Assembly: GCA_963743305.1 (NCBI GenBank)
Contig: CAVUPH010000014.1
Coordinates: 320,001 to 384,000, forward strand
Reading direction: 5' to 3'
DNA length: 64,000 bases
Source: an uncultured delta proteobacterium
GTDB lineage: Bacteria > Desulfobacterota > RBG-13-43-22
The notes under the pieces were generated by a model that saw only the letters and a program-made list of their open reading frames with translations, was not told the origin of the DNA and made no database searches. The position numbers and the translations under genes are program-made. Positions 12,025-33,442 of this stretch are shown here, piece after piece. The stretch's first letter is position 1; the number at the start of each line of letters is the position of its first letter.

Positions 12025-12168
12025 GATGGTTTCGCAAAAAGTCCCCAGCGCTGTCATTGCGAGGAGTGAAGCGACGAAGCAATCCCCAAGAATCAGCTAG
12101 TTACCATGGTGGGGATTCGCTTCGCTTCGCTCGCAATGACAGGTTTTTGGACTTTTTGCGAGGTTGTC
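12025..12168 (+). mobile_element. MITE-like element, cargo type A (REP-like hairpin)
   Basis: TIRs GATGGTTTCGCAAAAAGTCC / GGACTTTTTGCGAGGTTGTC; flanking direct repeat AATTTT; internal GTCATTGCGAG...CTCGCAATGAC. Confidence 0.85.
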
Positions 12169-19378: not shown

Positions 19379-19407
19379 GCCTCCCCGGTTTACTAAAAGT
19401 CAAGCTT

Positions 19408-19550
19408 GATGTGTTCGCAAAAAGTTGAAAAACTCATCATTGCGAGCGTAGCGAAGCAATCCCCACCTTGGCAAGTAGCTGAATATTGGGGATTGCTTCG
19501 TCGCTTCGCTCCTCGCAATGACAGCTTTGGGGACTTTTTGCTAGGTCCTC
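19408..19550 (-). mobile_element. MITE-like element, cargo type A (inverted copy)
   Basis: Reverse complement aligns with 12025-12168; flanking direct repeat AAGCTT. Confidence 0.85.
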
Positions 19551-19620
19551 AAGCTTGCCGTATTCGATATTCGGCCTTCGATGTTCATTTTTCTATTATT
19601 GAATTTAACTCGAGTCCTTA

Positions 19621-20349
19621 ATGTTGTTGGAAATTGAAAACCTGAAAGTGGCTTATGGACCCATCGAGGCCCTGCAGGGGATTTCGTTGCAGGTGGCGGA
19701 GGGGGAGATCGTTACACTGATTGGCGCCAACGGAGCCGGCAAGTCCACTACCCTGATGAGCATCATGCGACTGCCCCCACCCGAGGCCCCGACGGTTCTC
19801 TCCGGCCGACTTCAGTTTAACGGAGAAGACCTGCTCCTGTTTTCGCCCCATCAGGTGGTCAGCCGCCTGGGCTTGGCCCTGGTACCCGAGGGTCGCCGGA
19901 TCTTCGGCAACCTGACGGTCTGGGAAAACCTGAAAATAGCCGCTTTCGGGATCAAAGAGTCGCGAAAAATTCAGCAGAAGGCCCAGCGGGCTTTCGAGCT
20001 ATTTCCCCGCCTGGAGGAACGCCAGAACCAGATGGCCGACACCCTGAGCGGCGGGGAACAGCAGATGTTGGCCGTGGCCCGGGCCTTGATGACCGGGGGC
20101 AAAATGCTGCTTCTGGATGAACCCTCCATGGGGCTGGCTCCTCTTCTCATGTACGACCTCTTCCAGGTCCTCAAGGAGATCAACCGCCAGGGGACCACCA
20201 TTCTTCTGGTGGAACAGAACGCCCGCATCGCCCTCAAATACTCCCACCGGGGCTATGTCCTGGAGGCGGGGCGGATCGTCCTTTCCGGCCCGGCTCCGGA
20301 ACTGGCTAAAAACGAAGAGGTAAAAAAGGCCTATCTGGGGGAAGCATAA
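19621..20349 (+). CDS. livF: BCAA ABC transporter ATPase
   Basis: GANGAGKST, VPEGRRIF, LSGGEQQM, LDEPSMGL. Confidence 0.92.
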   Translation: MLLEIENLKVAYGPIEALQGISLQVAEGEIVTLIGANGAGKSTTLMSIMRLPPPEAPTVLSGRLQFNGEDLLLFSPHQVVSRLGLALVPEGRRIFGNLTVWENLKIAAFGIKESRKIQQKAQRAFELFPRLEERQNQMADTLSGGEQQMLAVARALMTGGKMLLLDEPSMGLAPLLMYDLFQVLKEINRQGTTILLVEQNARIALKYSHRGYVLEAGRIVLSGPAPELAKNEEVKKAYLGEA

Positions 20350-20362
20350 AGGTCATCAATTT

Positions 20363-20517
20363 GATGGACTCGCCAGAAGTCCGTCAACAGACCGAAGGCG
20401 AATGAGCCTCGGTCTGGGGTAGGGGTGGCACCATTTGAATTCACTTCAAATGGCGGGGGAGGGAGAGCCCTCCCCCGCCGAGCAGAAAGTCGTTTTTGGA
20501 CTTTTTGCGAGGTCATC
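20363..20517 (+). mobile_element. MITE-like element, cargo type B (three hairpins)
   Basis: Same TIR family as type A; the right TIR GAGGT lies 9 nt before the queE ATG. Confidence 0.8.
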
Positions 20518-20521
20518 ATAA

Positions 20522-21169
20522 ATGTCCCTTAAGATCAACGAAATCTTCTACAGCCTGCAGGGAGAATCTTCTTATGCCGGCCGCCCTTGCGTCTTCATCC
20601 GCTTAACCGGCTGCAACCTGCGTTGTTCCTACTGCGACACCCGGTATGCCTATGAAGAAGGAACGAAGATGGAATTTGATATGATTCTGGATCAAGTCTC
20701 CTCTTACCGCTGCCCGCTGGTCGAAATAACGGGAGGGGAACCTTTAATCCAGGCGGAGACGCCGGCACTCATCCTGCGGCTGCTGGAAAAAAGCTTTAAG
20801 GTCCTTCTGGAAACCAATGGGAGTCAAAACATTCAAGGGGTGGACGATCGGTGCGTTAAAGTAGTGGATGTGAAGTGCCCCTCCAGCGGGATGGAAGCCC
20901 AAAACGATTTGGAAAATCTTAGGAGGCTTTGTTCAACCGATGAACTTAAGTTTGTCATCGGGAACCGGATTGATTTCGAGTATGCCCGGGGAATTTTGGA
21001 TGATTACCAGCAATACTTTCCGGATAAAATCCCGGTCCACTTTTCACCGGTGTTTGGGATGTTGGAGCCAGAACTTCTGGCCCGATGGATATTAGAAGAA
21101 CACCTGGAGGTCCGCTTGCAGTTGCCGTTGCACAAAATCCTCTGGGATCCGAATCAAAGGGGCAGATGA
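20522..21169 (+). CDS. queE: 7-carboxy-7-deazaguanine synthase (radical SAM)
   Basis: EIFYSLQGE, CNLRCSYCDT, TGGEP, LETNG, LQLPLHK. Confidence 0.92.
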   Translation: MSLKINEIFYSLQGESSYAGRPCVFIRLTGCNLRCSYCDTRYAYEEGTKMEFDMILDQVSSYRCPLVEITGGEPLIQAETPALILRLLEKSFKVLLETNGSQNIQGVDDRCVKVVDVKCPSSGMEAQNDLENLRRLCSTDELKFVIGNRIDFEYARGILDDYQQYFPDKIPVHFSPVFGMLEPELLARWILEEHLEVRLQLPLHKILWDPNQRGR

Positions 21170-21323
21170 CGTACTCGCAAAAAGTCCGTCATCTGCCCGC
21201 GCGCGATTAAGCGCCGGGCTGGGGTAGGGGTGGAACCATTTGAATTCACTTCAAATGGCTGGGGGAGGGAAAGCCCTCCCCCGCCGAGCAGAAAGTCGTT
21301 TTTTGACTTTTTGCGAGGTTATC
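21168..21323 (+). mobile_element. MITE-like element, cargo type B
   Basis: Close copy of 20363-20517; flanking direct repeat AGAT. Confidence 0.85.
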
Positions 21324-21325
21324 AG

Positions 21326-31471: not shown

Positions 31472-31567
31472 GGATAACCTCGCCAGGTTAATTCCAATGG
31501 TTCCACTAGTTCCCCTAACCGGGACTTATTCGCCCTCTTTTTGTTGACGGACTTTCCCGTAAGATCG

Positions 31568-33442
31568 TCAATCCGTAGGGTTCTCGACCACCGGCTCCGA
31601 GACATCCGTTCCCTCCGCCTTGGGAAGGGCCGCAGCCCTGGGCGCCAGAGCAAAAAAAGCCTCGAAGATTTTGCGGGCGATCGGGGCCGCCGCCTCTCCT
31701 CCGTGGCCCCCGTGTTCCACCACAACGGCCACTGCGATTTCAGGGGATTCCAGAGGGGCAAAAGCGACGAACCAGGCATGGTCGCGGCTGCTGCCCCCGA
31801 CCGCCTTTTTACCTAAAGTCACCACCTGGGCCGTTCCGGTCTTTCCGGCGGCAATAATGCCCGGTAACCGGCAGGCCGCCCCGGTACCACCCGGTTCATT
31901 GACCACTCCGGCCAGTCCTTGGCGGACCAGCTTGAGGGACTCCGCACTGACCTTTGCCTGTTGAATCAGTTGGGGTGGGTATTCCCCCAGCACCACTCCC
32001 TGGGGGGAAACCAACCGTTTGACCAATTGCGGACGATACACCGCCCCCCCGTTGGCCACGGCGGCCGTCAGCACGGCCATCTGCAGGGGAGTGACCAAGT
32101 CATAGCCTTGGCCGATGGAAATGGACAGGGTTTCCCCCGGCTGCCAGGGAGTTTTAAACCGATTTAACTTCCAAGCCGAGGAGGGGATCAATCCTTTTTT
32201 TTCATGGGGCAGGGAAATTCCGGTGAGCTCCCCCAATCCGAAAAGCCGCGCATAATGGGCCAGACGGTCCACGCCCACCCGCTGGCCTACCTGATAAAAG
32301 TAAACATCGCAGGATTGGACGATGGCTTTATGAAGCTCCACCTGACCGTGTCCCCCTTTCCGCCAACAGTGAAAGACCCGGTTGCCAAAAGGCAAAGCCC
32401 CATTGCAGTAGAATGACGTCGTGGGGGTAATCACGCCCTCTTCCAAGGCAGCCAAGGCCGTCACAATTTTATAGGTGGAACCCGGGGGATACTGCCCCTG
32501 GATGGCTCGATTTTGAAAAGGCTTTAAGGGATCATTGATCAGAGCGTTCCATTCCTTGCCCGAAAGGTGCCGGGAAAAGGTGGTCGGGTCAAAAGCCGGG
32601 GTGCTGACCATCGCCAGCACCTCGCCGGTGGCAGGTTTGAGGGCCACTACGGCCCCTGTTTTCCCTTTGAGCGCCTCCTGGGCCACCTGCTGGAGCTTCC
32701 AATCCAGGGTGGTGATCAGATTGTTCCCGGCCACCGATTCTTTATAGGAAAGAGGCCGGATTTCATCCCCCAGGGCGTCCACCTCTATATAGCGCCCCCC
32801 CTTGACCCCGCCGAGTTCCGATTGCCACTGGTATTCCAGTCCCCATTGACCGATAAAATCCCCCATCCGTCGTTGGGGGAAAAGGCCGCTTTTTATCTGC
32901 TTGGGGGTAATTTCACTGAGGTAGCCGATCAGATGAGGAGCTACCACCCCCAAGGGATAGTTGCGCTGAGGGCTGACCTCGATATAGATCCCCGGCAATA
33001 GATATTTATAGGTTTCGAGCAGTCCCAGTTCGTCCCGGCTGATATCCAATTTTATCGGTACCGGCTTCAATGGTCCGACCTTGCTATCGGAGTAGCGCTG
33101 CTCGATTTCCTCCGCATCCATTTTTAGCAGATGCCTCAAGCGGTTTTTAAGCACTCCCCAATCCTGGACATCATCCGGAATGACATAAAGGTTAAAGGAG
33201 GGCCGGGAACTGACCAGCATAATTCCATTACGATCAAAAATAATTCCCCTGGAGGGCGGCACGTCCAGGACCCGGATGCGATTATTTTCTGAAAGTTGCT
33301 TGAAATAAGTCCCCTTGGCAATCTGCAGGTACCAGATACGAACCACCAGGGCGAAAAACACAGCTAAGATGATCAAGGTAGCGATAAAAAATCGCTTCAA
33401 GACATCCAGGGGTTCATTGGTCAGGAGCTGAAAAATGGACAT
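31568..33442 (-). CDS. mrdA: Penicillin-binding protein 2
   Basis: PGSTYK, SCD, KTGT; mre operon context. Confidence 0.95.
   Translation of the reverse strand: MSIFQLLTNEPLDVLKRFFIATLIILAVFFALVVRIWYLQIAKGTYFKQLSENNRIRVLDVPPSRGIIFDRNGIMLVSSRPSFNLYVIPDDVQDWGVLKNRLRHLLKMDAEEIEQRYSDSKVGPLKPVPIKLDISRDELGLLETYKYLLPGIYIEVSPQRNYPLGVVAPHLIGYLSEITPKQIKSGLFPQRRMGDFIGQWGLEYQWQSELGGVKGGRYIEVDALGDEIRPLSYKESVAGNNLITTLDWKLQQVAQEALKGKTGAVVALKPATGEVLAMVSTPAFDPTTFSRHLSGKEWNALINDPLKPFQNRAIQGQYPPGSTYKIVTALAALEEGVITPTTSFYCNGALPFGNRVFHCWRKGGHGQVELHKAIVQSCDVYFYQVGQRVGVDRLAHYARLFGLGELTGISLPHEKKGLIPSSAWKLNRFKTPWQPGETLSISIGQGYDLVTPLQMAVLTAAVANGGAVYRPQLVKRLVSPQGVVLGEYPPQLIQQAKVSAESLKLVRQGLAGVVNEPGGTGAACRLPGIIAAGKTGTAQVVTLGKKAVGGSSRDHAWFVAFAPLESPEIAVAVVVEHGGHGGEAAAPIARKIFEAFFALAPRAAALPKAEGTDVSEPVVENPTD

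Follow-up and report, generated by a model that had tools for sequence, protein, structure and literature searches.

The window analysed here is a 64,000-nt stretch of DNA from an uncultured delta proteobacterium (Desulfobacterota; RBG-13-43-22), corresponding to positions 320,001-384,000 of the forward strand of contig CAVUPH010000014.1 in assembly GCA_963743305.1. It contains two copies of a structured sequence, here called the type B element, the first between a livF-like gene and queE and the second between queE and queC. By every defining feature that could be tested, the autonomous partner excepted, the type B element is a non-autonomous transposable element of ~157 bp (MITE, for miniature inverted-repeat transposable element), and the two window copies are separate insertions into the tight livF/queE and queE/queC junctions. 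The copies, ends, empty sites, orientation, and fold described below point to a new MITE family that has probably adapted to life inside operons in the sense orientation. An initial sequence-only reading of the window had noted compensatory changes in one hairpin of the two copies and proposed selection on structure, as RNA or single-stranded DNA, in the service of either mobility or an undescribed cis-regulator beside queuosine genes. The structural and mobile parts of that proposal have held; the link to queuosine has not.

Copy number, ends, and target duplications

Used as a 157-nt BLAST query, copy 2 found 43 matches in the 4.9-Mb, 90%-complete assembly of its own genome. A more sensitive BLAST search located 77 places, of which 38 are near full length (149-234 nt) and occur on both strands, the others being fragments, mostly of the 3' end. 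Both ends could be recognised in 37 copies, which are 152-165 nt long; the 38th near-full copy was excluded from the neighbour counts because its ends could not be placed. Alignment of the 38 copies with their flanks placed the left end at TGAYGGACTCGCAAAAAGTC and the right end at GACTTTTTGCGAGGTYATCA. By manual reading of the alignment, the two form an imperfect 20-bp terminal inverted repeat in which 17 of 20 positions match when the right end is taken as its reverse complement. The own genome holds 256 occurrences of the 12-nt end core, and such cores frame 71 small elements there, in three size classes. A second family, type A, is more numerous than type B and has the same ends with a different interior.

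Just outside TGA...TCA, a perfect 4-bp direct repeat is present in 37 of the 71 elements, with every register tested, and in 33 of the 71 the match extends to the next base on each side, giving the form A-NNNN-T. Because the target seems to prefer TCA-NNNN-TGA, the registers TGA...TCA with 4 bp and GA...TC with 6 bp are indistinguishable by counting. TG...CA termini with duplications of 3-5 bp are typical of IS3- or IS21-like elements.

Pairs of end cores 0.2-6 kb apart, the spacing examined for a larger element, number only three in the own genome and none encloses a transposase; the open reading frames (ORFs) within them encode a glycosyltransferase, a ferredoxin-domain protein, GluRS, and a GGDEF protein. 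The 10 Y1_Tnp and five rve matches in the own genome were considered as an autonomous partner and rejected, as none is framed by the ends, and the one Y1 locus with nearby end cores holds merely another small element. Y1 transposases are usually about half of 321-351 aa, the length of the frames in which four of the Y1_Tnp (PF01797) matches lie (C18:80483-80809, C6:109780-110100, C30:13296-13616, and C24:104491-104814), all unlinked to element ends. A further small-element type, with the same right end and a third interior (GTCATCCTGAGCGAAGCGAAGGATC...), lies beside a broken Y1 gene at C18:30335-30525. Minimal forms that consist of the ends only were also observed, as ~50-nt elements with cores 31-41 nt apart (C33:11471-11520, C24:15040-15074), and single palindromes of 25 nt occur as well, for example the remnant at the C13_49754 site in the congener G002 (locus L160).

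Distribution and recent movement

Among 41 related genomes, 17 match the type B query, the own genome included. All three congeners have at least 20 scored matches each and 10 of 14 genomes of the sister genus are matched; outside the family the single match in 20 genomes is merely a 24-nt end. An 18-mer from the hairpin H3 (Table 1), searched against 185,579 species genomes, identified at least 106 stretches. Its carriers among the matches listed are uncultured Desulfobacterales, Desulfobacteraceae, or 'delta proteobacterium' genomes, together with a few single matches in unrelated phyla, roughly 35 chance matches being reckoned for a collection of this size. An nhmmer search gave 97 hits, placing the element in most of the collected 18-mer loci. 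No described Desulfobacterales MITE was found in a literature search in which coverage of subscription journals was thin.

Comparison with the three congeners (G001, G002, and G003, of which G002 is the closest) used a 2.4-kb query across the locus. G002 matches this query at 96% in two pieces that skip exactly copy 2, and G001 and G003 skip copy 2 as well; in all three genomes the site reads ...GGGGCGTATGAACAA..., where the stop codon of queE and the start codon of queC overlap within ATGA. Copy 1 is present at the same site in G002 and G003, and in G001 it is cut down to its first ~85 nt. In a DNA contig from a more distant relative, 20342 is followed, after 20 different letters, by 20535. 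For copies elsewhere in the genome, G002 and G003 lack the element at the C10_55418 site, their two genes overlapping there by 8 nt, and G001 and G002 lack it at the C20_189749 site, where stop and start abut as TAGATG and TAAATG. At C13_49754 there is a full copy in G003 and a 25-nt remnant in G002. Three of the four copies tested thus have orthologous sites that are empty in at least two congeners, and all three of the true empty sites seen are tight co-directional gene junctions, either overlapping or abutting. The flanks of the differing insertions are 96-99% identical between genomes. Presence and absence at orthologous sites indicate that the family has moved since the divergence of these genomes, and the suggestion of mobility made from the two copies is borne out by the inverted-repeat ends, the target duplications, and the empty sites.

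Position and orientation among genes

The genes beside the 37 copies were called with a codon-usage scorer. Relative to the element, both flanking genes run in the same direction (++) in 25 cases, both run against it (--) in six, the 5' gene is reversed and the 3' gene is not (-+) in six, and the opposite arrangement (+-) does not occur. The binomial p is 9e-4 for the 25 of 31 copies that are sense in co-directional pairs and 4e-5 for the 31 of 37 that point towards the 3'-side gene. Genes were called on both sides of 33 of the 70 copies from other genomes, and these divide into ++ 21, -- 7, -+ 3, and +- 2; for a further 17 copies a gene was called on one side only and for 20 on neither, and four more were dropped for short flanks. 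Type A elements of the own genome divide into ++ 8, -- 10, -+ 7, and +- 5 (30 with genes called on both sides of 33 orientable elements, which include one misfiled type B variant), and their usual distance from genes is tens to hundreds of bases. Since the same-ended type A is unbiased, the orientation bias belongs to the type B interior and ends in combination and not to a shared insertion machinery.

The ++ copies fit closely between their neighbours. In 23 of the 25, a start codon is first met in frame at -1 to +15 nt past the element, and the GAGG near the right end of the element is thus 6-12 nt, or slightly more, before the downstream start codon. On the other side, the upstream frame ends between -13 and +8 in 17 of the 25; the element's own TGA is the stop in five of these, and in four more the frame runs into the element, the stop not being located.

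Conservation of the fold

The two window copies are 87% identical over a MAFFT alignment and near-identical from the G-rich linker to the 3' end (~100 nt), including the stems CCATTTGAA/TTCAAATGG and GGGGGAGGG/CCCTCCCCC, as the sequence-only reading had stated. The hairpin on which that reading was built (20390-20414 in copy 1 and 21195-21219 in copy 2; H1 in Table 1) was likewise found as described, with nine pairs, one bulge in the same place, and a 6-nt loop in each copy, and a manual reading of the sequence retains the three double substitutions (A-T to C-G, A-T to G-C, and G-C to C-G). The span given for these features, 20390..21219, falls short of the elements, as the TGA...TCA ends reach further on both sides. 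Both copies fold far better than shuffled sequences; for copy 2 the z-score is -6.2 on the + strand and -7.9 on the - strand, with 0 of 200 shuffles as good either way.

Two copies had been judged too few for statistics, a limit lifted by a MAFFT alignment of 105 distinct full-length copies, 31 from the own genome and 74 from other genomes, from which partial copies and exact duplicates were removed. The structure tested consists of five hairpins (H0, H1, H3, H4, and H5) with 47 pairs. Standard pairs fill 95.3% of 4832 cells, compared to at most 52% in slid controls. Changes on both sides occur at 23 of the 47 pairs (shuffled mean 9.6, slid controls 10-15) and in 211 cells (shuffled mean 78, slid controls at most 50), and none of 500 shuffles reaches the observed value on any measure. 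The best case is H1 (columns 72/102: CG 48, GC 25, AU 12; columns 86/97: GC 43, CG 42), and exchanges of pair type are also seen in H0 (columns 4/26: UA 54, CG 45), H3 (columns 179/191: UA 95, GC 8), and H5 (columns 236/261: CG 61, UA 32). RNAalifold recovers H3, H4, and H5 without a given structure. Parsimony requires at least 40 switches of Watson-Crick type when the tree is made from all columns and 70 when it is made from the unpaired ones; neither tree is well resolved. In some copies whole stems have been swapped for unrelated sequence that still pairs, as in the H4 tops of L072, L089, and L128 and in 143-nt forms in which H1 is replaced by CCCGCAAAGCGGG. Cells with G-U on the + strand number 222 versus 64 with A-C, and in H4 the ratio is 68 to 13. 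Conserved unpaired segments include the TTCAC loop, the GATTAA loop, and the GGGGTAGGGGTGG linker. Selection on the type B fold, as proposed from the two copies, is supported by these data.

A hairpin module, TCCCGC-N4-6-GCGGGA (or GTCACGCC...GGCGTGAT), was observed at differing places in different copies (L049, L048, L121, L128, L120, L111, L109, L103, L072, L089, and L051, and in the own genome C15:13838-14098 and C14:118738-118998). It always extends or replaces the top of H1, H3, or H4, as if small hairpins had been inserted or exchanged. A switch in which the G-rich linker pairs with H4's 3' arm can be drawn on paper and was rejected, as no compensating change is seen in the 105-copy alignment.

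Proposed role within operons and competing explanations

Insertion into an overlapping stop/start junction would normally leave the downstream gene cut off from its ribosome-binding site. A type B copy in sense orientation could repair such a junction: it ends in GCGAGGTYATCA, which would put GAGG 6-12 nt before the next start codon, and the TGA that begins at its first base could stop the upstream reading frame. The interior would pack into five compact hairpins and hide a strong GGAGG-like run inside H4, and the operon would be read through, no terminator-like site being present in the window copies. Compensatory changes may then arise because only lineages that keep the + strand fold are tolerated or go on multiplying.

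Several observations weigh against a MITE family adapted to operons in this way. About half of the copies have an imperfect target duplication; in the window, the copy 2 junction is 2 bp below the norm and the duplication of copy 1 is not clean. An autonomous partner with these ends was not found in the 90%-complete own assembly, the one genome scanned. Six type B copies are antisense within operons, so the sense-strand features are not obligatory. The best share of the locus in any RNA run is 0.16, and a 151-nt contig from an RNA library, which covers 109 nt of element-like sequence with 14 differences, is no demonstration of transcription; the contigs aligned to the locus come from relatives and cannot reveal a transcript, and uncovered stretches carry no information. 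Co-transcription and the use of GAGG are what we infer from the DNA. Gene calls came from a custom caller and were checked only by Pfam matches, which cover 33 of the 37 neighbours on the 3' side. As to the fold, H1 alone has no G-U excess (24 versus 21), and a transcription-linked C-to-T bias, rather than selection, could be behind the excess elsewhere. The counted cells are not independent, as orthologous copies from sister genomes are in the alignment, and the 74 outside copies were gathered through an exact 18-mer in H3, so the near-invariance of H3 is partly built in.

A more ambitious version, which is possible but unlikely, sees type B as a mobile intercistronic module that evolved for operons and re-creates translational coupling, landing in stop/start junctions that overlap or abut, with its own TGA upstream, its own GAGG downstream, and a compact fold of ~150 nt. 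A ribosome terminating at the 5' end would melt a 14-bp end-to-end helix that contains GAGG and so free the 3' ribosome-binding site. Should this be the case, a nuclease, a protein, or temperature would incidentally gain a structured RNA handle common to at least 25 unrelated operons of one genome. Folded bare, the element has this end-to-end helix as its state of lowest free energy (-74.7 versus -58.5 kcal/mol). The helix was rejected as the main fold, as only one of its 14 pairs has a both-side change and both copies form the local hairpins when folded with their natural flanks, and it is kept as an alternative state.

The hairpins may instead be maintained for transposition as features of the DNA (subterminal binding sites, a cruciform, or single-strand hairpins) that are read by a transposase or host factors, the orientation bias then coming only from selection on the end stop and GAGG. 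This explanation is doubtful. The terminal repeat itself supplies H0 and H5, whose covariation may thus stem from binding sites that evolve together, and column 261 at the right end covaries with both column 15 at the left end and column 236, as expected for three such sites; the recent mobility of the family and the existence of ends-only forms of ~25-50 nt are also in its favour. However, H1, H3, and H4 are unrelated in sequence to the ends and still have both-side changes at 16 of 29 pairs, a covariation without such a binding-site explanation. Type A shares the ends and has a quite different interior, and the type B interior is therefore not needed for mobilisation by the shared ends. The excess of G-U over A-C, moreover, requires a single-stranded + strand.

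Another suggestion, an improbable one, is that the host has taken over the element as a shared RNA motif, with a site for a protein, small RNA, or ligand, that co-regulates twenty or more operons. The high conservation of the loops and linker and the sense orientation of 31 of the 37 copies are what such a motif would display, but the neighbouring genes have no common theme and part of the H3 conservation is an effect of how the copies were collected. Insertions that vary among genomes whose flanks are 96-99% identical fit a selfish element better than a regulon.

Still less probable is the absence of any selection on the fold, in which case the apparent compensation would merely record how a few subfamilies descended, with gene conversion acting among palindromic copies. 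Most double-change cells do fall in a few large subfamilies (e.g., CG 48 / GC 25 / AU 12), and related sequences can outdo every shuffle even without structure. Against this, the double changes are spread over 23 different pairs and all five hairpins, where slid controls reach 10-15, the most conservative tree requires at least 40 switches, and whole stems have been replaced by unrelated, still-pairing sequence.

The window locus and the queuosine genes

The features of the window are collected in Table 1. The type A element and type B copies 1 and 2 make this one operon with three consecutive small-element insertions, and the type A element is flanked by a perfect 4-bp duplication, AGCT, at 19403-19406 and 19552-19555. 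The queC start codon (ATG, 21326) comes one base past the end of copy 2.

Table 1. Small elements of the window and the parts of the two type B copies (positions in the window)
Feature	Position (copy 1 for parts)	Position in copy 2	Strand	Details
Type A element	19407..19551		+	Same kind of ends; between livG-like and livF-like genes
Type B element, copy 1	20362..20518		+	157 nt, TGA...TCA; between livF-like stop (20347-20349) and queE ATG (20522)
Type B element, copy 2		21167..21324	+	158 nt; first three bases TGA are the queE stop
Hairpin H0	20362..20386	21167-21191	+	TGAYGGACT / AGTCCRTCA; holds the left terminal inverted repeat
Hairpin H1	20389..20415	21195-21219	+	Both-side changes at 7 of 10 pairs
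Hairpin H3	20431..20453	21236-21258	+	CCATTTGAA-TTCAC-TTCAAATGG
Hairpin H4	20454..20477	21259-21283	+	GGGGGAGGG / CCCTCCCCC; both-side changes at 7 of 10 pairs
Hairpin H5	20483..20507	21289-21313	+	CAGAAAGTC / GACTTTTTG; 3' arm forms the right terminal inverted repeat's core
GAGG, Shine-Dalgarno-like, right end	20509..20512	21315-21318	+	9 nt before queE ATG; 7 nt before queC ATG
Type B, degenerate and internally deleted	31472..31570		-	First half of H3 joined to the right end

A scan of both window copies for promoter-like and terminator-like sites identified neither. The ORFs at the copies are a 62-aa frame on the - strand (20331-20519) that spans copy 1 and an 85-aa frame that overlaps copy 2, with a negative codon score. 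Because of insertions and deletions in H4, any reading frame shifts between type B copies; a 16-codon ORF from an ATG in H3 was rejected, as it is without a ribosome-binding site and the H4 variants disrupt its frame.

The interior of the type A element at 19407-19551 differs from that of type B and carries a TCATTGCGAG...GAAGCAATCC motif, and a second type A copy is present in the window at about 12030-12161. Immediately 5' of copy 1, at 20351-20359, is AGGTCATCA, a copy of the element's own right terminus. A right end preceding a left end was also observed at C17_55037, C12_41176, C20_149490, C14_163627, C19_41072, L032, L067, and L131, a pattern that could result from tandem insertion, from the targeting of existing ends, or from remnants of deleted copies. 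In G003 (C41:6076-6482, locus L143), ~400 extra bases lie between the livF-like gene and copy 1.

The sequence-only reading was correct that both copies precede genes of the queuosine pathway: by TIGR profiles, the gene after copy 1 is QueE-like (E 2e-76 to TIGR04349, short of its curated cut-off) and the one after copy 2 is QueC, which passes the cut-off of TIGR00364. It was equally correct that preQ1 riboswitch classes are not resembled, as Rfam, which includes classes I-III, gave no match at gathering scores in the whole window; between 20330 and 21340, with E up to 10, only flavivirus xrRNA and Acido-1 appeared, at chance level (E 1.2 and 5.4), and no preQ1 family. A Pfam family was found for 33 of the 37 neighbours on the 3' side. 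Queuosine genes account for two of the 37, queE and queC themselves, and the others include an amidase, a heterodisulfide-reductase-like protein, branched-chain amino acid permeases, GcvH, MetRS, ETF, SecY, MreB, fmt, and LysR. Copies beside many unrelated genes in both orientations had been named as evidence against a regulatory role. The many unrelated neighbours were found; the two orientations are not alike, since 31 of 37 copies point to the 3'-side gene.

With 38 near-full copies in the genome, the window copies bear no specific relation to queuosine and a cis-regulator tied to that pathway is not supported. The idea of an undescribed riboswitch or leader that controls queE and queC in response to preQ0, preQ1, or the state of queuosine supply, as two structured copies directly 5' of two queuosine genes might suggest, is refuted, with a negligible likelihood, because the association with the pathway is inconsistent (2 of 37), copy 2 is missing in all three sister genomes, which keep the queE-queC ATGA overlap, and Rfam offers nothing better than E = 1.2 at the locus.

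Significance

For annotation, the type B element is a cautionary case, in that a covarying structured motif before two genes of the same pathway mimics a riboswitch and is a repeat. Left unmasked, the repeat will mislead motif searches in Desulfobacterales genomes. The two MITE families with the same ends and different interiors provide a natural comparison, as only one of them accumulates in the sense orientation at operon stop/start junctions. If the proposed mechanism is correct, a selfish element would cut its own cost by means of a stop codon, a fold, and a ribosome-binding site, and operon spacers with new ribosome-binding sites would arise in one step. The frequent differences in presence and absence between genomes that are 96-99% identical at the flanks also make the element a useful strain marker.

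Comparison with known systems

In the REP/RAYT system, palindromes of 20-40 nt without target duplication are accompanied by a flanking Y1 transposase gene. Type B resembles REP/BIME (RAYT, Y1) sequences as a hairpin-forming repeat in operon spacers, and the GACG...CGTC of H0 in about half of the copies recalls the tag of the CGTC-tagged REPs named in PMC3733652. It differs in its target duplications and 20-bp inverted ends, and about half of the copies have GATG...CATC. Membership in the REP/RAYT system was rejected, given the target duplications and the finding that none of the 10 Y1_Tnp matches is flanked by the ends in a REP-like arrangement.

The Correia elements (NEMIS/CREE) of Neisseria are MITEs of 104-157 bp that are co-transcribed and act on mRNA, with cleavage by RNase III reported (PMC10969869); they carry an IHF site and promoters, and the promoter scan of the type B window copies was negative. 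Chunjie of Geobacter uraniireducens is described in PMC3184786 as an A+T-rich MITE of 178-235 bp with 21-bp ends and 9-bp duplications, and it has been reported inside an operon (PMC3184786, PMC10969869). Type B differs from it in being ~157 bp long, with G+C-rich stems and a 4-bp duplication.

The REP2 repeats of Neisseria, of 120-150 bp, lie immediately upstream of genes, supply a ribosome-binding site, and have internal stem-loops (Delihas 2011, PMC3184786). The ribosome-binding site offered to the next gene is the point of likeness. REP2 lacks terminal inverted repeats and comes with a promoter and an ATG, whereas type B has inverted ends plus target duplications, shows nothing promoter-like in its window copies, and would use the start codon of the flank.

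ERIC/IRU of the enterobacteria is a 127-bp MITE that in Yersinia is co-transcribed with flanking genes and has an orientation-dependent effect (Delihas 2008, PMC2229807), for which the proposed mechanism is a ribosome-induced refolding of the RNA that exposes an RNase E site (PMC2229807). As a small repeat with inverted-repeat ends in transcribed intergenic regions, ERIC is the system that type B would work most like. The two differ in that ERIC forms one long end-to-end stem, whereas type B forms five separate hairpins, sits at stop/start junctions, and has a 25:6 sense bias; no sequence similarity between them is claimed. Type B differs from ERIC, REP2, and Chunjie in its ends, duplication length, fold, and junction bias, and it is a new family of a known kind, the bacterial MITE, for which the counts point to an adaptation to operon junctions that is unusually clear.

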